Shown here piece after piece: positions 31,601 through 58,600 of a stretch of 64,000 bases of DNA. Position 1 is the stretch's first letter. Each line of letters opens with the position of its first letter. Both the position numbers and the translations under genes were made by a program. Below the pieces are notes generated by a model, which was given only the letters and a program-made list of their open reading frames with translations, made no database searches and had not been told where the DNA came from. The stretch is from Amphiscolops sp. MND2022 (Eukaryota), in contig OZ076412.1 in assembly GCA_964187785.1 (NCBI GenBank), positions 81,716,001 to 81,780,000 on the forward strand, written 5' to 3'.

Positions 31601-34600
31601 CTATTTATAAGCAAGTTTTTTCATCTGTGAACAAGATCACGGTTATTTTACCTTGGGCTGATTCACTCTGTTTCTTTTTCTCGCCATATTACGCAATATT
31701 ACAACTCTTGAATCTACACTGGAACCTTCAAGTTTTTCCATGAAACATTTTCACGGTAATTGGTACGTACTCACTTAAGTTTAAGTTTCCAGCTCTTTTC
31801 GAGCCAATTTTTCATTGTCTCGATAAATGTTTTGAAAGTCTTGAGAAAAAACACATTTTCATCAAAACTTTCATATTATATATTCCAAGTACTGCAAGTT
31901 CTATTTTAATCCATATTAGGAAGTAGAAACAAGCCGGGACCGGCCCAAGTCGGCACCATATCTAAGGCTCAAAAATAGCAAAAGGACTTCAAAGTGACAA
32001 GTATTCTCTTCCACAGCATGAGGAAAAAATTGAGAAAAAACCCGAATTTTTTTCGAATTTTTTTCGGTCTTCTGTAAGTCGCATAGTGCCGAAAAATGTG
32101 GAAGGGGGGCTTTGGGAGTTTTTGAACATCCATTCTTTTGCAAGATAGAAAAAAATGAAAGGGGGACCCTTTGGAGACATTAAAAAAAGTTGCCAAAAAA
32201 GTCTCACAAAGCCGAAATAACCTGCAAAAAAATTTTTGGTCAAGGGCAGGGCTCGAACTCACGTCCTTCTGCTTGGCAGACCGCAAAAAATCCTCAAAAA
32301 ATCAGAAGCTGAAGAAGCTACATTAGTGTGGCAAATAGTGGAAGCCAGCTTAAAAGCTTATAAAAAACTGCCACTTCGTTGGTCTTAGAAAAAAGAAAAG
32401 TCACTACTATAGTCTGCGTTTTTCTACGAAAAGCGCCGACTAAAAAATGACTATTTGGAAGAGCGAGTGGATAATCTAAAGGATTGATAATATTGCATGC
32501 AGCTAAATTTCAGCTAGTTATCGAATTCTTTGTGTCGTTAAAAATTTTATGGAAGAAAATAGCGACAACTCATATCAAGCGACAACTCATATCAGGCGAC
32601 TACTCATATCAATTTGGAAATGCGACAACTCATATCAATTGGATAAAAAGTGACAACTCAATTCAGGTTTGCCAATAGGTTACAATTTTAAGAACAATTT
32701 AAATTTAACTGCAATTAAAAATTCTAGTAATTTATTTGTAATTATTTCGCATTTTAGGCAATCTACCCACGATTATTTTCTCCGCAACCTTTTGAAAGAA
32801 GGTGTGATAAGGAACTGATTATCCATGACATTAATATTCACCATGAAATCTTGTAACTATTTTATAATTTCAAGTAATTACCTGTCAATTATCTGATTTC
32901 CTCTAATTATTTAATGATCTATTTTGAAGAAGTTTCGTTTCATATATTCCATTTTACTAATGATATGAGCTTTGATTGATATGAGTTATCGCTTGATAAG
33001 AGTTGTCGCTTGATATGAGTTGTTGCCGTACGGGTTTGTAGCAACAAGATGTCCTCTTTCATCATTTGTGTATTTCCGCAGCCAGAGAAATTTGATTATA
33101 GAACTCAAAAGTCGAGATTCCTTGAACATGCTACATGGAAACATGCAGGCTAACTTTTTTTTACAAAATATGGAAAACTCCGCGAGCCAGCTTGGGAACA
33201 TTTTGTAGGATTACAATGCAGCTTCCACTATTTCAAATAAAACTGAAAACACATTACCACATTAACTTCTTCACCGCCGCCATCACTTTGTTTTCACGCG
33301 TACATTTATCAAGTAAGTACCTTATGTAATCACCATTAGTCAAATAGCACGCTGAAAATGACGCTACTTTGGAACTTATAATGTGATTGAAGTTTTTTTG
33401 CAATAAAATCGCGGTAAAATTGATGAAGGTATCAGCTGGCAAAATTTTTGGAAGATAGTTGCCAGTATTCCCAGTACTTACAAACATTAGTCCGAAAAGT
33501 TTCAGCAGAAAATTTTTTATTACCATTTAAAGTAGGAAATAGTGTTTTTTGGTCGGCGCTTCATGAAGTTCATGAAGTGAAACGCGACTATTATAGTGAC
33601 TCATTTTTTTTCAATCCACACGAATTGACCAAAATAGTTCTTAAAAGTTCAACAAAATTAAATGGTCCCAAATTGAATCATTTGTCCTAGCGAACTGAAC
33701 TAATTTTTTTTCCTCTTTTTCCGCGTAACATACTGTCGCAATCTTGTTCTGAGGTCTGGGAGTCCGTAGAGATCTCCCTATTCAAACCTCTATGACTGCT
33801 GAATTTCTTATCTATTTTCATGTTGTTTTGTTGGTCATGAGGGCCTAACTGTCCTCCTGAACTGTTATCTGGTCTGGTGGACTTGTGGGCCGAAACACCG
33901 CTATAACATTTAGAGCCTTTGTCCGGTCCTGGAGACTTGTAGTCCGCTTGACCATATTGTTCCCCTGAGCTGCTGCCCGGTCTATGGGACTGGTGGTCAG
34001 TCTGACCTGAACAGACTCTATGGTCTCTATCTAGTCCCCTGGACCAGTGGGACGTGTGACTAGATTGGTCTCTTTGGCCCTTATTAAGTCTAATGGACCA
34101 GTGGTCCACACTATTTGAACGTTCTCTCAGGCCCACGTTAAGTCTTTGGGACTGGCGGTCCATATGACCAAAGCGATACTCGGGGCTCCTGTTTAGTCTA
34201 CCGGACTGTGAGTCCCTAATTGCGTCAGATTCAGGATTTTGAACCCCTAGTACGTTTTGAATGCTTGGAGGTACCTTTTCAGTAATTGCCGAGTTGATAA
34301 CTTCCAAAATTTGGGAATTTAAATCACTTCTAATCTCATCCAGTTTTCTGGTCATTTGGGACGTGATTTCATTATTTATCAGTCTTGCTGTCTCAATGGT
34401 AATTTCACTGTTTTCCCTACTATTTGTATTAATTAGTGACCTGAAGTCTTCACTAATAGGATTTGCAGTTTGAGGGCCATTGGACTCAAGGTCCAACTCA
34501 GTCTCTCTTTCTCCTAGCTGACAATCTAATTCGTTTCTGAAATAATTTCCTAACATTATATCTACATTCTCTAAGTCGGACATCACGTCAGATTGTCTTG

Positions 34601-37600
34601 ACCTTTTCTCCCTAGCCTTTTGTTTTCTCGTCGAAGGCATTTAAAGAATTTATTGCTCAGCAAAGATTGTATTGAGCTTTTATCGGTTAACTAAGCTTGA
34701 ACTGAGAGAAAATGAATAGAACAGAACAATAACAAAGATTGATCAATGAACAGCAATTTGTGATTTCTGGTTTTCGTCGTCGTATTCAAAGTTGTGTCCT
34801 TTAGACAAGGAGGACCAGCTATTTATACTAAATAGTGCATGACAAGCATAATTTCAGTGATCATGTTACTAAAAATAGCAACTCAATTAGGTCAAAGTGA
34901 CCCTAGGTCCTGACGTCTACATTGCGTCATTATTAGATCATATCTAAAAATAGCATCGTTTGGGATGAGGGTCTGTGAATGGGAGAATGGGATAAGGACT
35001 GACAGGCGGCTTGCCTTTCAAGCCACGTTGCGCGTAGCTTGAAAGGTCAACGCTTGTTTGCACATACGCTTATGCAAATATTACGTCATTGCGGACCGGT
35101 GGTCCATCCGACTAAATATCGTTAGCAACTACAGCACTGCGGACTGGTAGTCCGTTTGACTAAATACATGTACTACATGTTGAACAAGCAGATTAAATGA
35201 ATAATGAATACCAGCACATGATTGGTTAATAATCAAAATGGACTGCGCGTCAAATTGACCAAAGTGGATTTCACTTTGAACGCGTTTCCTTTATTGCACA
35301 GAGCTTAATTACAGTACTTGTTATTATTCCAACAAACATCAAATCGTTTTCTGGTTTACATTAATACTAGTATATATTACATGTCTAATAACAGTGATCT
35401 AAGATAATTTACATACTAAACATACTAATTCAAGTCCAAAAGTTTAGGGCAACGGGACCAATGGTCCAACTAATTACAGTGGTAGGACTCCGGGTATGTA
35501 GGACAAATGACTGTCGTTAGGGACCACTTGGTACTTGTTTCCGTCACAGTCGGCAGCCTGCGACACTCCCCGGGGGACAAGAATGAAGGAGCCTGCCTGC
35601 ATACCCGCTTGAAAAGCATTCCTACGTCTCAATCGCGTCTGATAGGACTCGCCGTCTATGTGCGTTTGTTCCAAGAAGTTGAACAGAATTTCTTCTTTGA
35701 TCGTGTCAAAAGATTTTCCACATACATAGCAATCTCCGTGGTGAACAATATTAGGCTCGCCACAAGCCCCACTGGTACTCACTGCTACGCCCGTTATATG
35801 GTCATTATCAGGCCAACGGGGGTATTGTTCAGTTGTCCAAGGGGTATCAAAATTGCCGACGTATGAGCCTTGCTCATGTATAGGCGGAGATTGGGGGGTA
35901 TCAGGAATGGGTTCCAGCTGGCTGCAGTGGGCAATGGGTCGCTGGTTTAATGGTTTAAAGCTCTCACTTGGGGGACTCTGGCCCAATACTAAGTCAACCA
36001 AATCACTAGGCGGATTGTCATCTGAGTATGAAGGTCCATACAGGGCTTCGGCAATAGACAGGTCATCAAGGCCTCCTGGGAGTTCTGTCGTCATGAATCT
36101 CCCGGTTACAGTTTGTGGCTCAAAGGGATGTTCTTCTCTGTAGCAGGCCAACACCTCGATGTCACTGTCTTGGTTGTCGTCCCTCACGGAGGTTTGTGAC
36201 GGGTCATCAATCTCCATTTCTTCGTCAGAGGACAAATAACTCAAACTAACGATCGGTTGGATTAGATCATCAACAGTAAACTGAAGGGCCATTTCCAAGT
36301 TGTATTTTCTCAGAAGGAGTTTTTTAGCAATTGTTGAAAGTGATTGTGAGTAACTGAATTGTAGATCGGAGTGAAAAATAGTGAGCGTTTCAGTCAAGAA
36401 GCCTTCGAGGTAAAATTCATAAAATTCGCGGGAGATCCCGGCGGGAAATTTACCCGCGAGTCTTTTTGATTACCTTCTGGTCTTCCCGTTAAGGTAAGGT
36501 TTCATCTTGTTGCACATCTATTCAAAACGCAGTTTCTCTAGTTGATAAGCCCTTGAGGCCAACTCAAGTATTTACTCACAATATCAGAGAGGTGTTAATA
36601 ACTCGAGTAAGTGTTTATCATCACTAAATTATTGTCAACAAACTTCTTCAAAGGGCAGCGGTCTGCTCGTCTATTACATATCAATAAACCAATGAGTCTT
36701 TGCCTTAATCATGACTGAGATTATGAATGAAATAGTAAAGATGAAGAAAATCCATGAAATAATGGCGATATGGACATTAATAATAAAATAGTGTTATTAT
36801 TTCTAATAAAAGGGAAAACAATTATGTCATGTACTTCACTGGCAGTCTCAGTAACACTTGATTAGTACATCTATTACGTAATAGTATTAATTAACGTAAG
36901 TAGGTAATGTATGCATGTGAGTACGGATTAACAATACTACTTAAGCCACGACGTCCATTAGACTTAAAGCACGCATTCGTAGCGTTCAAGTATAAGCAGT
37001 CTGAAGTATAGTCCGCGGTACTAACAGTCCAGTGGCAATTAACATTAAGTATCGATTTGCTAATCTGGAACTACGTTTAATTGAGTTGAAAGTAATGTAA
37101 ACCAGGAGTCAACAATCGTTTACGTTCAGCTATTCTTTTCATCGATTTTGAATTGATTTGTTACGAAGTGTGCTCCGCTATCAAGTCCTCAATACTAGTA
37201 GCCTTATACAGTCTGACCTACAGCCTTGTGGTCCCTTGGATCAGACTACTCCTCCCTATTTATCGTCTCCTTCAGCCTCATACGACATTTTCCCAAGCAG
37301 TAGTCAACTACGCTGTAAACAACAGAGGATAGCAATCTGCTCACGGCTTCACGGAAAACGAATTCTGGTCCACCGTCATGGCAGTCCCATCAGGTTGGTT
37401 CTTTTTAATTTGTTAAAATCAAGCCTGATCAGGGCTTTCTTTTAACTAAGTGCTTCCTCCATTGTGAAATGATAACACGCCGCATGAACGCGTTGAGTTG
37501 GACTTACTTCCGGAAGATTTTCTAAGCGGTGAAATGGATAGATTTGCAGGAAGCGAACCGCGATTATTCATATCTTTTCGTTTAGATAATGAAAAACTTG

Positions 37601-40600
37601 GCCAACCAATTTCCGGTCAAACTGAGTCGATGGATGTGACTACTCCAAATCCTGCTATCATCGATTATTGCAGCTCATCGACTAGCAGCTTAAGTGAGAC
37701 TAGTGGTCTTCCTGTCCTAGCACCATTAACGATTGACAAGGAAGTTGAAGCAGATTTGGTCCCTGAAGGTCCACCTGACCTCACCCAACTTGCAGAGGAA
37801 ATGCGGACTTCTGAACAATCTACTGAAGTTCCCCCGAACTCTGCACAAAAGACAGTGACAGCGACCGTTGCGTCCCTCGTGACGTATGCTAGCAGTAGCA
37901 CTTCTGAAGAAAGCTGTGGGGCATATTTTGATAGGAAGGTTGCCCTAATTGAAGAAGCCCGATCCTCTGAGGCCGTTGCACCTAACGCGGGGAGTGAACC
38001 CAAAGAGAGTGCCAGCGAAGCCATTTTAGTCGACACTACGCTACAGGAAAGCCCCAAACATCACACTGAGTCTGGAAGTAACAGTGACTCTTCAATGGAA
38101 ATAGAATCTGCCAGGCCAGCTAGTCCACAGTCGCCATCACCAACTCTGGGTTTCCTCTTCAGCCTTCCTGTCCAGCTTTTCAAAGCTCCTTGTAAGCCAA
38201 CCCATTATTCGACCGGTCACAGAGGTTACAAGCCTAAGAATCCTGATTCCAAAGTGACTATCGCCAACACAGTCATTGTTCAGCAAGCAATTGGAGATCA
38301 AGTAGTTGAACCCGCCACTGGCTCGATTCAAGCCCAAACTCCCCTTAGGACAGCGAGGCCTACCCGTACCTCCTTTGAACCCCGTAACCCCTCCAGTGAT
38401 GCCGAAGAAGGACCGGGCAGTGGGGTTAACTCAGAGGTTTATGCTAGGTCTACCATGGAGGAAGCGTTGACTTCCCCAAAGAAACTTCCTCGAGGTCATC
38501 TTGGTGATATGTCAAGCGATACATCGCGCTCTTCCTCCCCCGTACGAGAGTCTGGTACCGGACCATTGACTAGCAGTAGTCGTGTTTTAATCAAACAGCA
38601 TTTCAGTGAAGCCAGTCCAGTTTTTCTGCCGCGTGGACACCCTACCGTCGCTTTTAATGAGGGTCAAGTTAGCAGTATCCTCACCGCTGTCGCTAATGAG
38701 AGTGCCAGGGCGTCCTTTGATATGCTTAGTAGTGTCGTCGAACGGGCTAGCCGTCTTAACTTGGGTGGTTGTTCTCGCTGTAATCAGCCACGTGTTCCCG
38801 CACCAAAAGACAGCCTTTTATTGACCACTGACTCCGATCCAGACTGTTCTCAAAGGGGGTTTTCAGGCTCTCGAACTAGTTTCGCTAGTGACTTTTCCCA
38901 AAGCGATGGTGCAGCCGGCTCAAGCACAATGACTCCCGGGTCTCCTCGTCCGAGTCTTACATCAGTGACTCACATTCCTTCCCCTCCAGCTTTTGGCTGT
39001 AGTCAAGAAGACACCCGGGGAAATACCCCGTTAACTGCGTGCGATAGTCCGGGAGGCCAAACTTTAGCTGCTCTCAAGCAGGAAGCTATCAAGGATAAGC
39101 AAGTAACTCAGGTCAGCAAACGGTCAGCCACAAGGTCCAAAATCCCTCGCCGCAAGCCAATTCGTGGCCTGTATAATGTATAATCATTCAGGCCGTATAA
39201 TGCGGGAGGAATACTTTGAAGGAATGTCATGGACGAGAGTCTTCGTGTCCGGGCCTCTGGACCCAGAGCATAATCCTTATAAATTTTACTGTCTGATATG
39301 CAAGGACAACGTTTCCATTTACACCAAAGGGCCAAGGGAAATCATTCGACACTACTCATCTGAACGTCATCTCAGGAAAGACCAGAGGTGGAGGTATGAG
39401 TACTTGTCAGTCAAAGATTCTGTCACCGGAAATGTTAAACATCGGGTCCGCGGCAAGGATGGGAAATTGTTGACAGCGTATCAATTAGAGTTAGAGATAC
39501 CAAAGTTCATTGAAGCACCTCTGATTGACCTTGGAGAACGCATGCCCTTTTACGAGGACCATATGGCCGGACAACAACACTGCGTCACTACCCCTGACAG
39601 CAAGGTCCGAGCCCAAATCTGTGTACTGGGTTACTTCTTGCCCACCTTCGGCAACCTCTCAGTACTCCGCAGACTTTGGGGTCCCCTAGGAGCCGCTATG
39701 GGACAAGAGGTTGCTTTCCTCGGATTTAATTGGGGAAAAGAACGCCTTTCTGTAAGTATCTGTTTCCAGTCTATCAGTCCTATGAGTGTCTTCGTCGTAA
39801 ACTAACCACTTCCTGCGAGAACGTCCTAGCTTGTGTCATTAGGAATAACTTCCTTTTGTTATTGTAGGTCTTGTTCCATCATCTATTCCAACAAGTTGTA
39901 GAAGATATTGGGACGCAAGTCATGGCTAACGGTCTCTACTCAATTGACTTTGAACAACAAGGAGTCTTGCTCTACCTACACGTGACTTTCTGGAAAGGGC
40001 TACAGTTGTGCAGGGTGCCTCTACTACGCACTGGACGGACCACAGGACAAACTCCCGCAGAGATTCGTCTCTTGTCTGTGTTGCTATCTGCCATATCTTG
40101 CAAAGCCCAACTTGTCTGCTGCTCTGGGTGCACCTTAGGATTCCTCAAGGTCGTCGATTCGTGTCCCTTCTTCAAGCACGGAATTCAATGTACTACCCGA
40201 TTTGATGACTTATCAGCTGCCAAACTAATGCACAAGCAGAGTTATAGTGTATTTGGCCGGATCGATTTCTTTTCTGTCATCCAACATTTGGTGATCTGCC
40301 TCAGTGGCAGTTTGCAATATGAGTGGACAGTGATGACACCTGAGTTGACCAAGGTAAGTGTTCTTTAGTGTTCCCTTGTCTTTTTACCTTACAGTCCCTT
40401 ATATCTCTGGTATTTAGGCAATTAAGGCTTGCAAGTACGATGTGGTCAATCTTCCCACTATTTGCCATGAACTGCTCAGCAGTTGGACGGACGTAACTGC
40501 TTTCCTGTTGAAGTACGCCATGCCCCAGGAAGGACAGGGAGTGAAGAGAGTGGTTGGTAAATTTTATGCGTCCCGGTAGACCTGGCGCCCTTCAGGTAAT

Positions 40601-43600
40601 CAGAATTTCCTTTCTTGTTCTAGCCTCAAAATCTCGAGTGGTCCATCGTGTACGATGAATTCTTCACTAGCCGATTGGAGCTTTTCTCAAAGTTGATACG
40701 CGACTGTAAGTAGTTCTACTTGTATTACGGTCTCTCGGTTCATTTGGTAATAGACTAAGTAACTAATTTTGGTTCTAGACACGACCAGCTTCAGTATCAA
40801 CCTCTCCAGCCGAAGGGACCGGGGGTTCTACCTTTAAAAAGAATCCTGTCAGTTTCTGATGAAGCTCGCTCGACGATCGGTCAGCTCCAAGTGCTTACCC
40901 AGAGAGGGCCAGTTACAGCAGATTCATTCTCTGGAGTCAAAGAAGGCCATCGCACTTCCAATAGAGGACTTCCTGTCCAGATTGAAGTTAGGTGTGAAGT
41001 TCAACCATGCTTGCAAAGTTAAGGCTGAGCGAGAACAGAAGGACAAAAAGAATGCTGGTTTGAGCCTGGAAGTCATCACGAACAAGAATAAAGAGGAATA
41101 TGGACGACTTGCAAGAAGTTACATCATCCACGTTTTTAACGAGACTCAGGGGCATTTTAACCTAACAAGTGATATAGTACATGGGTTGGGCTCATTCGAC
41201 CTGGAGTCACTGTTGTCTGGACCCACCGAGTATTCTCTTGGTTGCTTCAAGCAGTTGTTTAATACCTTTTTGTTGCGTGAATATTTTAAACAAGAACAAG
41301 AAGCTCAGTGCCTGGAGGAATACACTTCCTTTGTGGACGAATTGAGACAGGTCTATTCTGATATGGCCCAACCAACCTTGTTGATCACAGATACCATCAA
41401 TTTCCTCATGGAGCAATCAAGTCTTCTGTCCCGGCCATTGATGTACCGCTTATTTACCCTTTCCTGCCTATGTATTGACCAGCCGTTTCAAGATCTTCCA
41501 GAGGTGAGGTTTAGTTCTGTTCGGACCGATGATCCCTCTAGTAAGCTGACTGATATTATCTTGCCTGTACAGTCGTATTTCAAGAGTGTTCCCCGTGGGG
41601 TTGAAACCCTTGCAGATGATTCCTCTGTCTCAAAGTTCTTGTCTCTTGAGACTACATTTGGGGACAGCGCCCTCCGAGATTCTTATGATCCCTGGTTATC
41701 AATTGACCTTTTTGGACGAGCTGGAATACTGGCGAAACTTGATCCCGATGCAATTACTCCTCACGAGCTGGCGAAAGCAGCTGAACCTGAGGTCAGCCAA
41801 ACTTGCAGTCCTCAAAAGAATTTAGCTGTCCCTAGAGGGAAGAAGCGTTCCTCCAAACTGCTGTCGAAGACTGAGCTTACACGCTCAGCGGAAAAATTGC
41901 GTGCTGGCCCTAAACATAAACTTTAATTGTACCATATGTACAATTGTCTTTAGTTTGTCTTTATGTTAATCTAGAATTGTTTGTGTTATCTATTTATCCA
42001 TTCCAATGCTTTCTATTGTTGGACTCCCAGTTCGTTTGTCTTGTACATATTCGATGAGTCATTTAGTCAAGTTTGTCAGATTTAGAACAAATATACATGT
42101 TCGTTCAGTATCTGTATTCATCAGTAAAGTTGGGGGTGGGGTTAGGTCTAAGATTGTATTTCCCTCCTCTAGGGCTGCTATTGTCTACAATCATTTCATC
42201 ACTTTCACTGTCTGATACATCGGGCACGATTGTATCGGTACCGTCAGATTTTGATTTGATCATCTCGGCGTTCGTTCTCGTGATCCGTCCAAGAGGTTCC
42301 TGTAGGTTCCTCATCATCGTTTCGGTTTTGGCTATCGGACCGGTGGTCCGTAGGAGTTGTTTCTCGGTCAGGCTGCCTGTGTGCAGCGTCGGTATCATTG
42401 TCTGGGCGAGTGGACTCGAGGTCCACTTCAGTGAGGATTTGGTCTCTTTGACCAAGAGTATCATAAGCACTGTCAGGAGCGATTTCGTCCTGTAAGCTAG
42501 GTGCCGGAAAGTCACCAAATTCCGTTTCCCAAGTGATGACGTATAGATCGTCCTGTGGGATAACAATTCCATCGTCCTGTTGTAAGTTGCCTTCCGGTCT
42601 TATGTCCTGTAATACAGTATTCGGTTCATATTTGCGCAGTCTAATACGATGTAAGATCTGCGTTTTATTGGAATTCAGTTTTCGGACATTGTAGTTTTCG
42701 TTCGATAAGACTTTTTCTACAATGTAGGGTCCAGTCCATCTGTATTCCCGAAACGGAATTTTTGATCCTTGGTGACCTGCGATAGGCTGTAATATGAAAC
42801 AGTAGTCGTTTTGCTTTAAAGGAGCCGCTTTGGCCTTTCGGTCATAATATTCTTTGTATTTCAAGTAGGATTGCATGATGTTTTTCTTGGTGTTATCTAA
42901 TAATATCTGCGTGCGGCGTTGAAATTCATCTGCAAAGTCTGTGGTCGGAAGGACCTTAGAGTTTGGATTAAGGCCCAGTTTGTGATCAAGTATGTTGTAT
43001 GGAATGCGACCGTGGAAAATCCTGGATGGTTCACAGCCTAGTGTAGCATGATAGGTTGTATTGTAGTTTAAGACAGCTAGCGGCAGGTATTTATGCCACT
43101 GTCGTCGGTAGTCCCCTGAGGCCATTTTTAGGTTCGTTTTGAGACTAGCATGTGTTCGCTCGAGTTTACCAATTGTTTGCGGATGTTTTGTAGTTGCGCA
43201 TTTTACTTGAATTCCCAGAGTTTGTGCAATTTTGGCTACTAGTTTGGACGTAAAGGCTGTTCCTTTGTCAGTGATTAGAGTGGTTGGTAAGTAGGTGTGT
43301 TTAGTCATTGTAACGGCTGCTTGATCCCTTCAATTGACCAAACTTTACGCCGCCCTGAATTCGGTGCTCGGCACTGCGGATCGTTACCGAACACTGCTTG
43401 CTTCTTAGGTTAAAAAGGACTGTATCTTGACTTAATAGGATCCAATGATCCCGAATTGCACTTCTTCCTTGTCTCTTAACGCGTCCAACTCTCCACAGGT
43501 TGAGAGTAACTAACTTAGTCGCCCTTAGTCTTTGGCGAAAAGTCGAAAAGAGGTGAAGAAATGAATTGAGAATTGAAATGGTCCTAAGACCCAACTTGAC

Positions 43601-46600: not shown

Positions 46601-49600
46601 GCCTTTACTTGGTTGCAATTGCTTTGTCACTTTCTGTGATTGTGTCAGTTTTAGCTGCATTTCATTTCGCGCTGAATCCATGTCGTTTTTTAAGACTTGT
46701 TTGGCTCTAGCGGCTTCTTCTTCGAGTTTAGCAATTTCGAGTTTTTCTGTGAGGGTATCAATTTCATCTTGCTTCCTTCGAATTTCGGCTTTGCGTCTTG
46801 CTGCAGCTAACTGCTCATCAATTTCATCTTGTTTCTTCATTGCTTCCAATTCTAGAAGAAGTATTCGTTTTGCGTTTGATGACTTAGAACTAGCTGTTGT
46901 TATGTTGCTCTTCGAGGTTGCTTTGACTGACCCTTTGTTGCTTTGTTCGGGTAACACTTTCACATCACTGATTGATTTAATCACATCAGAGGGGTTGGAT
47001 GCTCCAACAACACGTCGTTCCTCTTCAGTTACCCTGCGTGACTGTGTCAGTGATTTCTTTTCACTAGTTGCTTCCACTAAGCCATTGCGTTTCGTTGGAT
47101 TGAAGCTACTTTGCTTGAGCTTCCTTGTGTGAGTGCATCTCATTGCCGCATTTGTTGAGGTTCCACTTGCCTCTTGGCGAAGTTTCGTTTTGTCTGTCTC
47201 ATCTTTTGGACCCTTCATCAATGTCTTTACATCTGGGAACCAATAGCCCCAGCTGGCTTCTAACTCAGCAAAGAATTCTTTCCATTCAGTCACACTTCGA
47301 CTGAGCTGTCTTTGCTTTTCTTTATTTGTAAGGTCCAACATAAGATCTACGTTATGCAACAATGCTTGTTTATTCTCGCGATATTCGAAAACCCAATCGT
47401 TCAATTCTTCTTTGCGAAGAATAGCGCCTTGCTCGTCCAGCTTGTCATCCAACTCTTTAATCAGAGTCCGTAGTCTTCCAACTTGGGTGGCCACGGCGTC
47501 CACATAAAAGCGCCACACGTACCAGTCGGAATCATTTTCCAAATCTCTTGATCTGAGGTCCACCAGTTCTTGACTCTGATTTGTGTTTCTTTGATCAAAT
47601 ACATTTGTCATTCGAGGATGTTGCACCTCGAGCATTTCTTTCTTTCTGGCTTTCATTTGTTCAGATTTCAGTTTGTCGTTTAACTGGGGGTTTTTTGACT
47701 ACACAATAGTTTCTTGACGTCTTTGTCACTTTTCCCAAAAACAGCAATTTGATAGATCTGAGGTGTCAACTGCTCAACCCAGTAATCAATCGCCAATTCT
47801 TGAAGAATCAACCCAAAAACGTCAATTATGCTTGCCTTCTTTGACGGATTTGATTGTTTCGGTGGACCTCGCCCAATGACTCGATCCTTTTGCTTTACTT
47901 GGTGGATATGCTTGCAGCGACGTCTTAGTTCAAACCTTTGCTTTCAATTAGGAATACGTTTTCCAAGGATACAACTCGTCCCAAACTGGAATTGAAGCAC
48001 ACTTGCCTCCAGAGTGCTGCTAAAGCCCAACTCCCAGAGTACACAACCAATCCAGTTCCAAATCGCCCAATAGTCCAATATCAAAGCCCCAGTGTACACT
48101 TTCCCAGAGTTCCAGTCACCAACTGTAGACCCAGTCTCCACAGTTCTCGTTCGTCGTGAATAGTCGTCTCAGCTACTTGTCGCGATTCCGTTCGAATGCG
48201 ACGACTCTTGCAATACTTTTCGATTGCTGTGCGAACAGGATCACCTGCTGCCACTTCTAGGTTTGGAAGGTCCCTACGAATAGGCTTGTCCTCCCAGCTC
48301 TCTGGTTTGCCAATGAAACCAGCACGGAAGCTTTTTCCAAGCTTCGTGTTACTTGAACAGATAGATGCTGTGTCACCCGTTTGATGACTCTAACTGCTCA
48401 CGTGTCTTCCACCGCGAATGCTATCCACACACAATGAAGACGACGTTCCTCTTGTAGTGTCCACCCAGATTGATGTCCACTCCAACTGTTGGTGTCCGCC
48501 CAATGATGATGTCCGGGTCGGCGGACCAAATGTAACGGCTGCTTGATCCCTTCAATTGACCAAACTTTACGCCGCCCTGAATTCGGTGCTCGGCACTGCG
48601 GATCGTTACCGAACACTGCTTGCTTCTTAGGTTAAAAAGGACTGTATCTTGACTTAATAGGATCCAATGATCCCGAATTGCACTTCTTCCTTGTCTCTTA
48701 ACGCGTCCAACTCTCCACAGGTTGAGAGTAACTAACTTAGTCGCCCTTAGTCTTTGGCGAAAAGTCGAAAAGAGGTGAAGAAATGAATTGAGAATTGAAA
48801 TGGTCCTAAGACCCAACTTGACTACAGCTATTCAGTCGTTAAAATCTCTATCTAATAATGGTATAAACGCGGTTTACAATTCTACAGTAAATATAAGGCG
48901 AAGACAAGTTGAAATATGTGGTATAAATAAATGACATTTGAGTGAATTATTAAAGTTATTGGCTATGTAAACAAACCATAGTGTGGGTATAGCATGTTGG
49001 TTAGGTGGGCTTTAAAGCATGTTTACACATGGTAAATATCAGTAATTTCAACAGAGTTACATTCTAATGTGGTCATATAGGTAAATAGCAATGTTTACAG
49101 TATTGGCATAATGACCTTGAATATCACACATGTGAGGGGTAAAGGGGGTTATAATGGGGGAATGACCTTGAAACTTGGCCGGTGAGTTCGTGTTTAGTCC
49201 TTGCATATGTGTGCCAAGTTTCATGGCTCTATGAATAATAGTCTTCGAGAAAACCCATTTGGGGGGGGGGGTTTAAAGATTTGTGATGATTGGATTTTCG
49301 TCAAATTTTCATCTAAGTTTTTTAGAGTTTAAGTTCTTGTTTCTCAACCAACCTGTTCCAAATCAACTTTCATTGCCTGCAGATGACTGGCGCCAACAGT
49401 CATAATATCGATAAGAACTTTCGCCGTGTTGGTAGTCGAAGCGTCCGTAACTGGATATGCAAAAAGATATCGTGAAAAGACGTCCATGGCGGTAATGATG
49501 TTTTCATAGCCGCCACTAGGAGGCAAGTTCGGCAGTAAGTCGATTTGCATGGCATCTTCAGGGCCCAGGTCCCATTCGGGCAAATTAAGCAGTTCTGGGG

Positions 49601-52600
49601 TAATCGACGAATTGGGTATTCGTTTGTCTTTTATGCATGTTTCACATCCTTGGACCCATTTTTTAACGAGTTTTGCGATGCCTGGATAATAATATTTTTG
49701 TCGAATCTCTATGAGCACTTTGGATATTCCTGGGTGCTTATTGGCTTTACCATGTAGCGATTCAAGTAGTTCAGAGACTAGATGTTTCGGTAAAAGGACC
49801 TGGTTGTATCTAGTGGATCCGGTTTCGTCAAAATACTGTCGGGTGATAATTTCATCAATGACGGACAGTCGGTCCATCTGACGACAGTAATGCTGGTAGC
49901 GGTTGTCTTGTAACAGAATGGTTTCGGAGTAGTTTTCCTTGAGTATTTTGAATCGCAATTGTTGTAGAATTACATCATTATTTTGTTCTACTGCTATAGA
50001 TTTCGGGTAGGTTAGTTTTTGAAGAGTGGTTAATTTGTAATAGTCACTTTTGTGGGTAGCAAATTTTTCGAATGAGATATCGGGTAGTTGGTTTGTTGGG
50101 TAATCTCTAGCTGCTTTTTTACGCTGTAAAATTTGTTCTTCTGTCTCATCATCATCCTCCGTGTAGAAGATTTGTTCCTCTTCGGACACTCCTGCTGATT
50201 GGACGTGTAGTTCAATCGGTGTCGTTGGGATATCTTCCCTAATTCTGAGGATCAGTTTTTCCTTTGGAGAGATTTCGAGACGGGACAAGTAGTCAGCGGC
50301 AGTGTTGTTTTTGCCAGGAATATGAGCAATTGTGAAATTGAATTGGATGACATAGTCACATGCGTTCCATAATGTTGGTGGAATGATTTTCGTCTGAAAA
50401 AATCGTGTGACAGATTTATTGTCGGTGAGTATGATTACTGGTTTTGGGGTCCCCCAAAAGATATGTCCGAATTCCTTGAAAGCAAAGAAAATTGCTAAGA
50501 ATTCCTTCGCGTAAATGGACATTTTCATTTGTGCGGGACTGAAGGTCTTAGATCCATAAGCTACTGGTGCGAACGCTTTCCTTGTTGAGGTATATTTCTC
50601 AAGGGGATCGTCTTCGATGAGGACTGCGTACCCTGCGGCCGAAAAGCTAGCATCAGTCATTAGGGCTATTTGCGTGTTCGGTAGGGGTTGTTTAAGTGCC
50701 AGTTCACAACATCGGTCGAGTGCTTTGTTGATATCAGTGAACTTTTCCAGTAGGTCCGGTGTTACGAGGACTTTTTCGTCTTTAGTTAGCAATTTGAAAA
50801 ATGGCGTTAGTTTTTCCGAGAGCCTTGGGATGTAATTCCGATAGTAGTTGAGGAATCCCAAGTAACGTTGGAGTGCCTTTTTTGATTTCGGGAATTTTGT
50901 ATTTTCTAGAAAATTTTGGACTCGTGGTCTCTGCGGCTTCACTCCGGCAGGAGTGATGGTACGTCCCAGAAAGTCAATTTCAGTTGCCCTAAAATGGCAT
51001 TTATGCATTGTGAGTTTGAGACCAGCCTGTTGAATGCATTGAAATGTGGCCCTGAGGTTGTTGATAAGCTGTTCGGCATTGTTGGCAGCTATGCCAATGT
51101 CATCGACATATTGGGCACATTGGTCTGCTTTAATGACTTTATCCAGGTATTCGCGCATGAAACTAGAAAAGGCCGATAGTGCTCTACTAAGTCCTTGTGC
51201 TAATCTTCTGTATGCGAAAGTTCTACTAGCGAAATTGAAAGCAAGCATTTCGATTGATCGTTGGTCGGCCATCTGCAGGCAGTGGTAAGCTTGCGAGCAG
51301 TCCAATTTACAAAATAGTTTTTTGCCTGCCATGTGTTGGGCTGCGTCAGTGAGTGTACTCACTGGATGGTTGTTGTTGATGTAGTCATCCGAGATAAGGT
51401 TGTTAATCTTGCGCAAATCGACTAATAGTCTCAGTTTGCCGTTAGGTTTTTTTTGGGCATATATTGGGCTTGCATATTTGGAGAATGGGAGTGTTGTAAT
51501 GATCCCATAACGATGGAGTAGTGCCAGCTCCACAAGGATGTCCTCTTTGAGGTTGATTGGCGTTGGCAGACTCTGACTGTAGGCCGGTGAGTCATCCTTG
51601 GGCGTCAATTTGACCTTGAAGTCCTCGTTCATGCCTATGTCAAAGCGGTGTCTCGCGAATATGTCGTGGAACTCGACCAGTAGGTCTTCAATGCGTGCAA
51701 TCTCAGTAGGTTGCAGCATAGAGTCTGTCCAGTCAAAATTAGACAGGAATTGACGTCGTGACTCAGGGTTGTCCTGAGGGTTGAGTTTCTCTAATTCTTG
51801 GAGATTGATGAGTTCGGATAGAATCCTTTTCTGGATTGGCGTATGTTGTTGAGGGTCCCCAGGGTCTTCTGGTGTGGGAAACCAGTAGTTTTCCTTGAAG
51901 TCCTCAGGTTTGGTAGATTTGATTAAGCTGCTTGCATAGTAGGCAGCGTTCTCAGGGTTGTCCTGCAAGAGGTGCCATGTGGTCACCGGGTCTATGGGTT
52001 TGACATATTTCAACTGTTCTGGCGTCAGGACAGTGAAAGTGGCTACTTGTGTGCCTCTTTTGAGGGTATACGGACAGTCGGTAAAGTTGTTCAGGTGAAC
52101 TGATACTTGACCATTGGTCAAAGTGACTAAAGCAGCACAAAAGGCAATATCGCCATCGTCTGTAAGCATGTTGCTTGGTTGAAGGATCCCAGTAACTGTA
52201 GTGTCTTCGTACATTTGTGAAGACAGCTGGACCGAGTGTCGGTCATTAGGTGGGATGGTGACGTCCTCTCTAATGCAGATGGGTTCCATGACGTTAGTAT
52301 ACTTATGATCAGCAGTTTTCAATTGCATTGAGAAGAAGGGAAAATTCAGGACACCTTGTCTCATGTCCAGTATGGTGTTGTTCCGTTGGAGGAACGAAAG
52401 ACCAATCAGCGGGCTGGTGAGTTTTTCCATAACTATGAATATCTCGTGGAATTCGATGTCGCCGACTTCAAACTTCAGCTCGACTGTGCTCTTTGGAGTC
52501 TCCAGCTGCCCATTAGCAACCATAATCTGGAAGTTGGGTGCCGGTCCCTCTTTGACAATAGACTGAGGGGCCAATAATTGGATTTTACGTAGATCAGCTT

Positions 52601-55600
52601 CTGGGATTGCGCTAGATAGAGCTCCCGTGTCTACAAGGCCATCTAATGTTAGTTCGCCAAAATCCATTGGAAAATAGAGCATTCGTCGTTTGTATTTGAG
52701 GCCGAGATTGGTTGTCAGCGGTACATAGTCTGGTTCCCCCGTTCTGGTGACTAGGGTGCTCACAAAGCGCGCTGCAACTGCTGTGGCCAAGGAGACTTGT
52801 GGTCCTACATGTTGAGATTTGTGGCCAACGTCCATGTGGGACGTTTGATGGGTCAGTTGCGGGCCATGTTGCCATGGGTCAACTCGTGCGTTAAGAAGGA
52901 CCGTATTCAGACCTTGGTCAGTTGCCAAAGAATCTGGTTCTATGTTCAAGTGCTGTTTGTTAAAATTTTGATAGAAGTATAAGTGGTGTTGATTGTAGCA
53001 ATTAGCCTCCCAGTAGGGGTCAAAACCATAGTCAGGGTCAGGGTAATATGGGTTATAGTCGTCAACAAGAGGTATAAGTCGTATAGTCGAAGTATCGTTT
53101 TGTAGGCTGTTGGACGTGGGGTCCAAAGTGGTAGAAAAATTAGGTAGAGTTTTCATCTGCTGCTGCCAGCCAGCTGATGATGTTTCTTTAAGAGCTGTAT
53201 AATACTCAGTATAATATATGTTTGGAGGGTCAGATATTATGTACTGCCGTACACGGAGTTTTTCATTTATTTGGAGTCGTGGCAAATCTAGTTTTTTGGA
53301 TTCTTTAAGATTGACGTGGTTTGTTTGTTTTTTTACATCTTCTTGGCTGGTGGACTTATCGGCAGCTGTAGTGTCCTCCAGTTTAAGGTTTTTGGGCTTG
53401 AGGTGGGCTCCAGCGCCTTTCCAACATCGTTCTGCCGGGTGATTCGTTTTGTCGCAAGTTGGACATTTTGGATACTCTTTCTTGGTATCCTGCCCATCAT
53501 TGCGGCGTTGTTCCTCCTTTCTTTTGAGTTTTCGACAATCGTCTTTGACATGTCCTGGTTTCTTGCAATAGTTGCAAGTAAGATTTGGATCGATGCCAGA
53601 AGAGAGAAGGCCAGTTCCCGGTCGTGTTGCTGTAGGGGCAGTGGACATTGTTGGTACTGGGATGTCGTCCCCCTCCTCAAGTCCATTGAGCTCAAGTTCA
53701 CGTTCTAAGTGTGCGACTATTTCCTCGTAGGTGGCGTTTTCGAGTCTAGCCATTTTGACGGAGCGTTTCAATTTTGGTGGCAATTTGGCATAGAGAAGAC
53801 TATCAATCATAGCCTGGGCGTTCTGGCCAAACGCTTTTTCAGCTCCCTGATTGAGTTCTTCAAGGAAATCTGGCAGTTTCATGGTGTTGGGGTCGAACAC
53901 CAATCTGTGCCATTTGTGTTTGGCGGTCGCCTGGGACTCTGGTTTTACGTATTTTCTACGGAAGATGGCTAAGATGTCCTCTAATGTTTGCTTGTTTGTT
54001 GAATTGATGTTACGGAATGTTTGCAAGGCATTCTTGCGTAACAATGAGTGGAAATGGTTGATTTTCATTGCTTCAGTCATTTCGGGCTGCATTTTTATCA
54101 TTGTGTGGAAAAGGTCTTCGAAGAGCTCGAATTTCTCTGATTTCCCATCAAATGTTACTGTAGTCGAGCTGACGGGGCGTACCGTGAGGGTCTGTGCCGT
54201 GGGTCGGTTGTTGATACCTACCAGTATGTCAGCAAGTCTATTGTTGGGATCGGTAGTGGTGTTCGGTAGTGCGTCACCTGGGACCTGTTGGGTGGGGTCC
54301 AGGGGTTCGCCATGAGTGTCTTCTGGATTTTGCAGGGGTTCTTGGGATTGCATGGGACGTCCGGTAAGGAACTCAGGAACCGTATGGGGGGTATGGTTGG
54401 CTCCTGTCACCATGTCGCAATCTTGTTCTGAGGTCTGGGAGTCCGTAGAGATCTCCCTATTCAAACCTCTATGACTGCTGAATTTCTTATCTATTTTCAT
54501 GTTGTTTTGTTGGTCATGAGGGCCTAACTGTCCTCCTGAACTGTTATCTGGTCTGGTGGACTTGTGGGCCGAAACACCGCTATAACATTTAGAGCCTTTG
54601 TCCGGTCCTGGAGACTTGTAGTCCGCTTGACCATATTGTTCCCCTGAGCTGCTGCCCGGTCTATGGGACTGGTGGTCAGTCTGACCTGAACAGACTCTAT
54701 GGTCTCTATCTAGTCCCCTGGACCAGTGGGACGTGTGACTAGGTTGGTCTCTTCGGCCCTTATTAAGTCTATTGGACCAGTGGTCCACACTATTTGAACG
54801 TTCTCTCAGGCCCACGTTAAGTCTTTGGGACTGGCGGTCCATATGACCAAAGCGATCCTCGGGGCTCCTGTTTAGTCTACCGGACTGTGAGTCCCTAATT
54901 GCGTCAGATTCAGGATTTTGAACCCCTAGTACGTTTTGAATGCTTGGAAGTACCTTTTCAGTAATTGCCGAGTTGATAACTTCCAAAATTTGGGAATTTA
55001 AATCACTTCTAATCTCATCCAGTTTTCTGGTCATTTGGGACGTGATTTCATTATTTATCAGTCTTGCTGTCTCAATGGTAATTTCACTGTTTTCCCTACT
55101 ATTTGTATTAATTAGTGACCTGAAGTCTTCACTAATAGGATTTGCAGTTTGAGGGCCATTGGACTCAAGGTCCAACTCAGTCTCTCTTTCTCCTAGCTGA
55201 CAATCTAATTCGTTTCTGGAATAATTTCCTAACATTATATCTACATTCTCTAAGTCAGACATCACGTCAGATTGTCTTGACCTTTTCTCCCTAGCCTTTT
55301 GTTTTCTCGTCGAAGGCATTTAAAGAATTTATTGCTCAGCAAAGATTGTATTGAGCTTTTATCGGTTAACTAAGCTTGATCTGAGAGAAAATGAATAGAA
55401 CAGAACAATAACAAAGATTGATCAATGAACAGCAATTTGTGATTTCTGGTTTTCGTCGTCGTATTCAAAGTTGTGTCCTTTAGACAAGGAGGACCAGCTA
55501 TTTATACTAAATAGTGCATGACAAGCATAATTTCAGTGATCATGTTACTAAAAATAGCAACTCAATTAGGTCAAAGTGACCCTAGGTCCTGACGTCTACA

Positions 55601-58600
55601 TTGCGTCATTATTAGATCATATCTAAAAATAGCATCGTTTGGGATGAGGGTCTGTGAATGGGAGAATGGGATAAGGACTGACAGGCGGCTTGCCTTTCAA
55701 GCCACGTTGCGCGTAGCTTGAAAGGTCAACGCTTGTTTGCACATACGCTTATGCAAATATTACGTCATTGCGGACCGGTGGTCCATCCGACTAAATATCG
55801 TTAGCAACTACAGCACTGCGGACTGGTAGTCCGTTTGACTAAATACATGTACTACATGTTGAACGAGCAGATTAAATGAATAATGAATACCAGCACATGA
55901 TTGGTTAATAATCAAAATGGACTGCGCGTCAAATTGACCAAAGTGGATTTCACTTTGAACGCGTTTCCTTTATTGCACAGAGCTTAATTACAGTACTTGT
56001 TATTAATCCAACAAACATCAATCATCGTTTTCTGGTTTACATTAATACTAGTATATATTACATGTCTAATAACAGTGATCTAAGATAATTTACATACTAA
56101 ACATACTAATTCAAGTCCAAAAGTTTAGGGCAACGGGACCAATGGTCCAACTAATTACAGTGGTAGGACTCCGGGTATGTAGGACAAATGACTGTCGTTA
56201 GGGACCACTTGGTACTTGTTTCCGTCACAGGCGGCAGCCTGCGACACATACAGTACCGCGTGAGACTAAAGGGTCCCACTTTCAGTTTTTTTCGGCATTG
56301 TGAGACTTTTTTCTTAAAAAAAGTTTTCCCAACAGGGTCTTCCCTTCAATTTTTTGATGTTTTGTGACAGAATGGATGTTGAAAAATCCCAAAGGCCTCT
56401 GTCAATTTTTTCGACTTTGTTAGACTTTTTTCGGAAACTTTTTATTCACCAAAGGGTCCCCCTTCAATTTTTTGATGTTTTGCAACAATGGATGTTGAGT
56501 ATCAACAATGCGAAAGGATTCCCCTTTGAGTGCGCCAGTTCCGTCATTTAGGTTTTTCGTGAGTTTGATACTCTTTTTGTGAATTTGATACTTTGAGTTT
56601 TTTGCCACTTTCATGTACTTTTGCTATTTTTGAGCCTTAGATGTGGCGCCGACTTATGCCGTTCCCGGCTTGTTTGAAAAATTAATGAGATTCCTCACAA
56701 GACTTTGAAAGATTTTGCAAGATTTTTATAAAAATTGCATGAGGTTTAAAGAATTTAGCGAGACTTGAAAGAAACATTCTTGACACTTGCAAAGAAATCT
56801 GTTCTTTTTTGTTTGTAAATAAGTTGTCAAAAACCGTACCGGAAACGTAAACTTCGGCAACAGACACGGCCTTTCCTTTTCGGTTCTCGGCCGAGCACGA
56901 ATAGATTCCACTGTCGTGCGGACCAGCTTCGTGTATGGTGAGATAACAGTCGGATCCACTTCGAACTTGCGTGATGCGATGTCCGTCTATCGAAATTTGA
57001 CAGCCATTCAGACTCCACACAATTTCAGGCTTCGGTTCACCGTGAATCACACAATGGAACTGTAATGAGTCATTGACCTTCACCGTTTGACCTTCAATGT
57101 TCAGGTCAAAGCTGGGCGGCGTGGCCGGGGCTAAAGGTCAAAGCAGAAGAGGGCGTGAACGAATCAGACAGGTTAGTGGGAGAGTATTTGAAAATGGGAG
57201 ACATGAATGAAAATATGTTGAAAAGAAGAGGTTATGGAAGAGAAAGGAATGAAGTTTCAGAGGAAATGAAGCTTCGTGGATAAAATGACTGCAGTTGATT
57301 CCAAAAGGATAGTTAGCTAACATACAACAAAAATACACATTATCCTTCACGAAATTTCTTTATGAGTTTTTGTTCACACTGCGCTAATTTTTGCACTAAT
57401 TCCTAACAAAAATTCAAGCCTTTTCAGAACCTGTTTCCCATGTATTTGCAAGTTTTCCGGTGAATGAACTATGCATTTGTTTTCAACAGACAGCGTGAAT
57501 ATTTGCCCTATTCTGATGCCAACTTTCTGATCCTTTCAAGCTCTGAATATCCCTTCCTAACTTGAAAAAGTGAAGTTTGTCCTAAAAATTTTTTGAATGT
57601 TGAAAACACTTTTCAAGAACTTTGGCATAGATAAAAAGAATAGAGCATGAAAATTTTGCAATAGTGAATTCGCTTCCCGGAATAGACACTAGGACTTCGA
57701 AAAACTCGCTTGATCTTGATGAAAGTTGCAGGTGAAAGCTTCGCCGAACAGCCGACGAAGCGATGCCAATTACCCATGCACCCATTACCTGTCACGATGA
57801 TCTCGGCAGATGTCGTAGCCTTTCCCCTCTCGTTCTCGGCCAAAACCGAGATTTGACCCCCGTGTTCCTTGGAGATGCTCTTGATTGAGCACCTGTGCCG
57901 GGGTCCCTCTTGGGTGAGCGAGTCCACTCTGGGGGCTTTCAGAGCCTCCCCGTTGAGGAACCACGTGACCTTGGGTTCTGGGTTACCCCTCACTGAAACT
58001 TGCAAGTCCAGAGATTCCCCCTCCTCAACTTCTTTGGTTGAAAGTCGCTCCGTGAAAATCGGAGCATTCGAAGCTGAAACGAGAGAGAGAGCATATCAGA
58101 GGAAAGGAAAGTTTATTTGACTGGATATTTGAAAACATACAATATCATCAATTTTTATGGAAGAAAAACTAGAACTACATCCAGCCAGGAGAGAGAATGA
58201 GCTTAAGCAGCTCATGTAACCTCTCCCCGTAATATGAAAACAAAAAGAAATGTTGCAAAACAATTGGTGTGTCGAATTTCTGTTTTTCTTAACGGTTTAT
58301 CTTTCGGATTGAAAAACGAAATGTTCTTTAATAATCAGAGAAGAGTTTCACATAAGTGACTACCTTTCACGTATGGATCTGATTATTTCTTCAAATGTGA
58401 TTGTGTTTCGGCTGTGCTCAATTTGATTAAGCCAGTCGGCATTAATTAAATCATAGCCTTTCAACCAATTATACTGCTTTCTCAATCTGTTGTCAACTGA
58501 TTTGGCGCGGGTAATTGTTCGACAATAAGTCAAGGGTACTTCAAAGCTTCATTTCAAATCAAAACTCTTCGAAAACTTCATTTTAGTAAATGTTCACTTT

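Follow-up and report, generated by a model that had tools for sequence, protein, structure and literature searches.

What does a Ty3/Gypsy-type retrotransposon do with long terminal repeats (LTRs) that encode protein and with several kilobases of further genes behind its pol, one of them spliced and running on the opposite strand? The question is raised by an element in a 64,000-nt stretch of the genome of Amphiscolops sp. MND2022 (GCA_964187785.1, contig OZ076412.1, positions 81,716,001 to 81,780,000 of the forward strand), referred to here as the window. A preliminary description of this stretch had proposed a complex, multi-gene lineage of retrotransposons, which is borne out by an accessory region that is common to divergent families and is under purifying selection. 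The layout is almost certainly a trait of a whole clade, and this clade is large, old and recently spreading. The accessory genes, one of which is likely a captured and disarmed hAT transposase, on balance likely regulate their own element in the nucleus, most probably by binding to its DNA and so sustaining its transcription.

The element occupies positions 33734 to 56246 on the minus strand and is about 16.42 kb long once a nested insertion is left out. Its 3' LTR (33734..35565, 1832 nt) and 5' LTR (54413..56246, 1834 nt), both with TG...CA ends, differ by 11 substitutions and two gap columns, and the repeat boundaries place a target site duplication (TSD), CATAC, at 33729..33733 on the left and 56247..56251 on the right. 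In a self-comparison of the window two pairs of direct repeats are found, an outer one of 99.3% and an inner one of 99.1% identity, and the flanks of the element match adjoining parts of one dispersed repeat elsewhere in the window, as is expected of a clean insertion. The coordinates, the 16.4-kb size with 1.83-kb coding LTRs, the LTR identity of about 99% and the intact TSD given in the preliminary description are exact, and the accessory region, for which 6.5 kb had been claimed, measures about 6.7 kb from the pol stop (42244) to the 3' LTR. Both LTR ends are, as claimed, overlapped by open reading frames (ORFs), gag starting 907 nt inside the 5' LTR and the sense accessory gene stopping 92 nt into the 3' LTR. 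The window copy itself is a broken, dead member of its clade, owing to the nested insertion, to a fused gag-pol and to two lesions of the antisense gene that none of the 20 sister copies has: its frame shifts near 39.17 kb and stops prematurely at 40835-40837. An apparent first antisense intron near 39.1 kb was rejected on these grounds, as the frameshift is private to this copy.

The sister copies come from a DNA search of the animal's own genome (1.07 Gb), which gave 49 matches; 20 places were fetched, and every one of them holds the LTR, the sense ORF and the antisense region, with 18 joining the two integrase halves and two having lost pol. The same gene order recurs at all 20 of a further set of divergent loci, chosen for variety from 150 + 113 protein matches, the LTR pairs being 96.9-100% identical; both sets of 20 were chosen by cargo. 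A cargo-independent sample was taken from the junction between LTR and primer site, which occurs 7,449 times in the genome (control 1). It comprises 40 of the first 41 junction matches, all on one contig (one was skipped as too near its neighbour), and among the 33 sampled elements with an integrase the antisense gene is found in 24 with the first profiles and in 26 with profiles iterated on the sampled loci. In addition, six loci with a reverse transcriptase (RT) 74-87% identical each carry at least one antisense piece, and a first look gave 7,886 and 7,470 candidates for two of the antisense exons. If about two-thirds of the 7,449 junctions carry the cassette, as extrapolated from 40 on one contig, some 4,600-5,200 copies would amount to a large share of this genome. 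Recent mobility, which the preliminary description had ascribed to this layout, holds for the clade, with LTR pairs of 97-100% in other families; the window copy itself is broken. Natural deletion variants also occur (L059/L060 at G000:C12:13.41 Mb, and L251), one of which retains its LTRs and most of the accessory region and lacks gag-pol, while another lacks the antisense gene and retains pol and the sense gene.

Selection on these frames was estimated from the ratio of nonsynonymous to synonymous substitution (dN/dS), pooled against 20 near copies. The ratio is 0.15 for RT, 0.20 for integrase and 0.24 for gag, 0.16 for the first and 0.45 for the second 150 of the LTR-encoded codons; it is 0.22 in the sense ORF and ranges over 0.13-0.41 among the antisense exons. 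The accessory frames also show a third-position excess. On these estimates (dN/dS 0.13-0.45) purifying selection acts on every one of the extra frames. Between families RTs are 85-98% identical, accessory proteins mostly 40-62%, and synonymous sites are near saturation; the integrases of families that share the accessory region are about 50-95% identical. Over 42 loci the distances between antisense genes are correlated with those between integrases (Spearman 0.86), and the deep groups are common to both trees, which suggests one old capture followed by mostly vertical descent. At one locus (L167) synonymous divergence is 0.10-0.22 in gag, RT, integrase and sense ORF and saturated in the antisense exons, so that this cassette has been exchanged. 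L167/L168 (G000:C13:56.55 Mb), with a backbone close to the window copy and a different antisense cassette, is a natural swap.

The antisense gene lies on the plus strand and consists of five predicted exons. Exon 1 (37534..39751) encodes a disordered N-terminus, a conserved helix pair and a C2H2/BED-like zinc finger, exon 2 (39868..40353, 486 nt) an RNase H-like core, and exons 3 (40418..40552, 135 nt), 4 (40624..40705, 82 nt) and 5 (40779..41926) complete a predicted protein of about 1,350 aa by the sum of exon sizes. The GT/AG dinucleotides at the eight splice sites are kept in 19-21 of 21 families, among which exons 2-4 are almost always 486, 135 and 82 nt long, intron lengths vary, and identity is 37% in introns and 57% in exons. 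A relative from another source, P0070 (on a 2.6-kb contig), is unbroken across intron 1, genomic matches breaking at its residue 653; it is at best 38% identical to this genome over long matches and may represent either a transcript or a relative that lacks introns. Among longer database proteins there was no spliced, full-length relative of exon 5, and metagenome and viral contigs yielded no relatives. No RNA record with the accessory region was listed, which says nothing for or against its expression. It is highly probable that both accessory genes are translated.

The origin of the antisense protein was approached through an AlphaFold model of P0070, built from a 58-row alignment (mean predicted local distance difference test score, pLDDT, 52; core 70-86), which has a disordered N-terminus, a confident helix pair, the zinc finger and a three-stranded sheet with a helix. 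The top fold found by Foldseek is the hAT transposase Hermes (PDB 8edg; E 1.5e-3, prob 0.96, with six of the ten best rows), and VIA-align also places Hermes first among 48,161 entries (Z 6.7, root-mean-square deviation 3.8, 121 residues aligned), in a match that extends beyond the core. The language-model neighbours in the Atlas are of BED, FAM200/ZBED5, GTF2IRD2 and CGGBP1 types at 0.82-0.86 (BED types 0.82-0.84). In the zinc finger the CxxC is nearly invariant and an RH motif is conserved, with a weak C2H2 Pfam match in 33 of 58 proteins. Judged by motif spacing, for which we assumed the catalytic positions of Hermes, strand 1 has E or D in most families and Q, R, H or V in divergent ones, strand 4 lacks an acidic residue, and exon 5 has none conserved at the expected catalytic place; by this spacing the DDE triad is not intact. 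None of the 37 relatives scanned, among the 150 listed of 1,557 matches in a search of 1.84 billion proteins, has a hAT Pfam match, a viral fold library gave no match at E 0.001, and DUF4371 gave no signal in the genome or in controls. No terminal inverted repeats with an 8-bp TSD around the gene stood out in the self-comparison of the window, no dedicated search having been made. Altogether, the antisense gene is probably of hAT origin.

The sense accessory gene (35474..36331, minus strand) has its first ATG at 36292 (272 aa) and a likely AUU start at 36331 (285 aa). It runs through the polypurine tract (PPT), a purine-rich stretch beside the 3' LTR (35566..35581, minus strand), and stops at LTR base 92 in 17 of 18 families. 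Its protein keeps a Cys/His cluster with CxxC; profile searches give the protein no family match and Pfam only weak zinc-motif rows. In 16 of 17 families the codon thirteen places before the first ATG is ATT (15) or ATA (1) and has a purine at -3 and G at +4; those that follow vary synonymously, the frame ahead is broken, and a splice acceptor was rejected in the absence of an AG in shared phase. This combination argues for AUU initiation, and the sense gene is likely translated from AUU, which would add a short basic peptide. The start codons of the two accessory genes face away from each other across a spacer of 1.2 kb (36332..37533), and in 16 other families the start-to-start distance is 1.1-1.7 kb. 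Several 8-mers of the spacer recur in 15-17 of 17 families, and two blocks keep a fixed distance (about -80 and -27) from the antisense ATG, one of them palindromic (37506-37516) and, as we take it, reminiscent of an ETS site. In its simplest reading the spacer is likely a two-way promoter. Together with the LTR promoter this would make three transcription units, as suggested by orientation, conserved splice sites and conserved promoter-like motifs.

At the other end of the element it is gag that occupies the LTR. Its ATG (55319) lies inside the 5' LTR, 907 nt ahead of the inner end, and in 17 of 18 families the ATG within the LTR keeps one phase relative to the LTR end (598-907 coding nt), with a TATA-like box (55501-55506 in the window) 119-242 nt upstream in all 18. 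The LTR-encoded part comprises 200-300 codons, about 40-50% of the LTR length, the first 150 being strongly selected, and every solo LTR would carry a promoter and such an open frame toward host DNA. In the window the second copy of this gag N-terminus (33687..34640, minus strand, 317 aa) runs a few codons into the host flank. The gag frame crosses the LTR end and the primer-binding site, which is read into gag; this site (12 nt, 54401..54412, minus strand) complements the 3' end of tRNA-Leu(CAG) including CCA. A matching tRNA-Leu(CAG) is present in the genome, one of six loci being called by ARAGORN. A dense tandem array of tRNA-Leu-like 3' ends was seen at G000:C8:35.59-35.64 Mb (spacing about 230-300 bp; 967 pattern matches genome-wide), and this is the primer tRNA type of the clade.

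The main frame (49404..55319, minus strand) contains the LTR-encoded N-terminus, DUF1759, CCHC, protease, dUTPase-like, RT, RNase H and the start of integrase; the 3' part of integrase (42244..43303, minus strand; Pfam rve and Integrase_p58_C) forms the end of pol. This is the Ty3/Gypsy order by Pfam, the dUTPase match being weak (E 0.009) and below the cut-off. Gag and pol form a single frame here, which is private to the window copy: a conserved slippery heptamer followed by the gag stop (53288..53297, minus strand) is present in 24 other loci, and open gag in most sister copies ends there at 676-677 aa (572-599 aa in other families), so that pol is likely expressed by -1 frameshift. The 1991-aa fusion in the window stems from a one-base slip shortly upstream of the heptamer, possibly a mutation, possibly a fault of the assembly; the frames are also fused at one further locus, L158. 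Pol has one Ty3-type RNase H domain (residues 1525-1651) with its acidic residues kept, followed by the integrase zinc finger at 1844, and Pfam finds no second RNase H family in pol. An env-bearing errantivirus or retrovirus was rejected, since no env family is matched among the Pfam-scanned element proteins and no hydropathy is transmembrane-like (19-residue maximum 0.97 in the sense ORF, and no higher than 1.71 in any of the four antisense pieces examined). Odin retrotransposons have a dual RNase H, a tether plus a new RNase H, according to the accessible part of their description (PMC9040795), and membership among them was rejected on account of the single domain.

How these parts might work together can be sketched as follows. 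Transcription from the LTR TATA promoter would yield the genomic RNA, from which gag would be translated from inside the LTR through the LTR end and primer site, and pol by -1 frameshift. The internal two-way promoter would give a sense mRNA, with its AUU start and its extension into U3 (nef likewise runs into U3), and an antisense pre-mRNA, the four introns of which would persist through reverse transcription, since the RNA that is copied carries them in antisense. The antisense protein, combining a zinc finger with an RNase H-like scaffold that has lost its cutting residues, would bind and not cut, and the core replication cycle would otherwise be that of an ordinary Gypsy element. A non-cutting DNA-binding scaffold with fast, family-wise divergence best suits a factor that binds its own element, and since such proteins can act in trans, occasional loss from single elements fits as well. 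A self-directed role in transcription or against silencing has slightly less than an even chance. More tentatively, and with appreciably less confidence than that, one may picture a so far undescribed, deep-branching animal LTR clade of thousands of copies that arrived independently at a programme resembling that of complex retroviruses, and in which a single ancient hAT capture, disarmed, and an AUU-initiated zinc protein, both expressed from a two-way internal promoter, are fast-evolving, family-specific factors that bind element DNA and defeat host silencing. If true, one transposon class has domesticated the enzyme of the other.

Several points weigh against the antisense gene as a disarmed transposase and the accessory proteins as regulators. 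The hAT fold and neighbour scores are below the bars of the tools (E above 0.001, Z below 8, Atlas below 0.9), and they derive from a single model of a relative, P0070, with its low mean pLDDT; the alignment-based fold covers the N-terminal two-thirds, and the single-sequence fold of exon 5 has a pLDDT of 36. Comparisons by hhalign (probability below 2%) and by hidden Markov models with 8-15 hAT ORFs of the genome were no better than a reversed control, with a shallow template (Neff 2.6), and PDB profile searches with four accessory alignments were empty at E 10, the Pfam profiles giving no match. Seven of the 33 sampled elements are without the antisense gene, six with integrases 38-49% identical and a close one (83%) that looks deleted; the gene is therefore not needed in cis. 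The dN/dS ratios were pooled from pairwise comparisons with the window copy, and the pairs are not independent. No polyadenylation signal is conserved across the LTR families compared, so R and U5 are unmapped; an AATAAA before the gag ATG was rejected, as it is conserved in some families only. The function assigned to the accessory proteins is read from sequence and predicted structure. The missing sequence-level hAT match would also suit the capture of a gene from the host or a virus whose product has a generic RNase H-like fold, and close behind Hermes in the fold lists come integrases, Argonautes and ribosomal proteins. Against this, Hermes heads both lists, the VIA-align match is not confined to the core, hAT-derived families are indicated independently by the language-model neighbours, and the order of zinc finger, helices, RNase H core and long helical region matches that of hAT transposases. 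A non-hAT origin, which concerns descent only and is compatible with the other alternatives, is therefore rather improbable.

Among the functional alternatives, the antisense protein could be an integration-targeting or nuclear-entry factor that ties the integration complex to chromatin. The zinc finger and transposase-like scaffold suit binding of DNA or chromatin, the protein co-diverges with integrase, and a similar role has been proposed for plant antisense ORFs in the accessible part of one study (PMC7264820). It evolves far faster than integrase, however (identity to the window copy 16-56% against 57-95%, leaving L167 out), and has been swapped between families at least once (L167), both of which are easier to reconcile with a DNA or host partner that differs by family than with integrase as a fixed partner, so that we regard such a factor as unlikely. 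A Rev-like action of the accessory proteins on RNA, in export or translation of unspliced genomic RNA or in suppression of small-RNA silencing, would agree with the basic N-terminal extension and Cys/His cluster of the sense protein and with the ability of C2H2 fingers to bind RNA. An export factor has been reported in C. elegans Cer1, as far as the accessible text goes (PMC10309623). The best fold of the antisense protein is nonetheless a DNA transposase and profile scans matched no RNA-binding family, which leaves an RNA role distinctly doubtful. The accessory region might finally be a passive, nested DNA transposon carried along without function, given that nested insertions are common (one lies in the window) and that the antisense gene of the window copy is broken. 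Purifying selection within the family is nevertheless as strong as on RT (conserved exons dN/dS 0.13-0.22), frames and splice sites are kept across families with saturated synonymous sites, the antisense gene co-diverges with integrase, and without an intact catalytic triad it cannot be selected as a transposon; passive carriage is extremely improbable.

The place of this clade among known elements is not given by its RT-RNase H, which scores about equally with foamy virus (97 bits), 8r0s (90.5), presumably a caulimovirus enzyme, and Ty3 (89.5) and leaves the clade unplaced among the Ty3/Gypsy clades. The RT (50301-51722, minus strand) has an unusual LAQGL motif. In Ty1 gag also starts inside the 5' LTR with the primer site within the gag frame; Ty1 is a copia element with only few codons in its LTR, in contrast to 200-300 here. 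Among complex retroviruses, nef of HIV is an accessory ORF that overlaps the PPT and U3, much like the sense gene over PPT and LTR tip. HTLV-1 has an antisense regulatory gene, HBZ, in the accessible part of PMC11963269. Unlike these viruses the clade has no env and a single RNase H, and its antisense start lies in an internal spacer and not in the 3' LTR. Among plant elements, Retand has a region of 2.9-6.6 kb between pol and 3' LTR with conserved antisense ORFs (PMC11963269), the antisense ORF of maize Grande (gene23) has its own promoter and a nuclear product, and rice RIRE2 likewise has an antisense ORF (PMC11963269; PMC7264820). A long region of this kind with a conserved antisense ORF is common to these and the present clade. 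The TRP28 domain (PF04195) of the plant ORFs, stated to be confined to flowering plants (PMC11963269; PMC7264820), was absent among the 16 + 58 + 37 proteins scanned here, and four introns, the hAT-like fold, the second, head-to-head gene and the coding LTR set the clade apart, no introns being reported for plants in the accessible parts of these papers. The resemblance to complex retroviruses and plant Ogre/Tat elements noted in the preliminary description therefore extends to layout and, with no TRP28, no env and a single RNase H, not to kinship; the likeness to Retand/Grande and complex retroviruses is best regarded as analogy.

Nearer in host range are the bdelloid rotifer elements Vesta, Juno and TelKA, animal elements of Ty3/Gypsy type that place a dUTPase between protease and RT and are diverse in their third ORFs, which encode env, GDSL, DEDDy, coiled-coil or transmembrane proteins and are described as read from spliced mRNAs; the accessible text mentions no transposase among them (PMC5408684). 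The zinc finger and RNase H-like core of Hermes (8edg) and of the catalytically dead hAT-derived proteins (FAM200, GTF2IRD2, CGGBP1 types) have likely counterparts in the antisense protein, which differs in its lack of an intact DDE, its 500-aa disordered N-terminal extension, its place in a retrotransposon and undetectable sequence homology. A literature search, with Repbase entries, supplements and subscription papers outside its scope, found no element with this combination. Antisense ORFs behind pol (plants), third ORFs with a dUTPase (rotifers) and a gag start in the LTR (Ty1) are known separately, and the combination is new within the literature searched. According to the accessible part of PMC7264820, plant antisense ORFs have no similarity to other transposons and their origin is unknown. 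Where antisense accessory ORFs in LTR elements come from and what they do is an open question, for which this clade would offer a traceable origin. With thousands of copies, accessory identities from 99% to below 20%, natural loss and swap, and conserved promoter-like motifs as candidate binding sites, it could serve as a study system.

The insertion that interrupts the integrase is a 6.09-kb LTR element (43309..49398, minus strand) with LTRs of 866/868 nt that differ by six substitutions, a TSD of GTCAT (43304-43308 and 49399-49403) and a 1192-aa ORF; it is present in none of the 20 sister copies. The preliminary description had called it a BEL element: a nested LTR element with TSD it is, and the BEL label is tentative, as the ORF matches nothing in Pfam and does not resemble the window's own BEL, the start of the primer site being, to our mind, the sole reminder of such elements. 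Its family (107 scored matches of 2,510 candidates, 85-96% identical, the window's own aside) is a non-autonomous LTR family, many copies of which retain an ORF of about 1,190 aa without known domains that extends into the 3' LTR. A separate BEL/Pao element lies at 16449-21827 of the window (190-bp repeats 99.5% identical, 1642-aa frame with Peptidase_A17, RT and DUF5641), and a 3.7-kb LTR element at 25515-29257 (211-bp repeats 99% identical, protease ORF, weak integrase match, no RT match) is probably non-autonomous. Outside the element, 14515-14808 and 29255-29674 contain short repeats, tandem and dispersed, with periods of 27-40 and about 170. I-set immunoglobulin exons on the minus strand flank the element on both sides (11001-11402, 56685-57137 and 57616-58095), so that it probably sits inside an intron of an animal gene; these exons likely belong to one large host gene with very long, transposon-filled introns.

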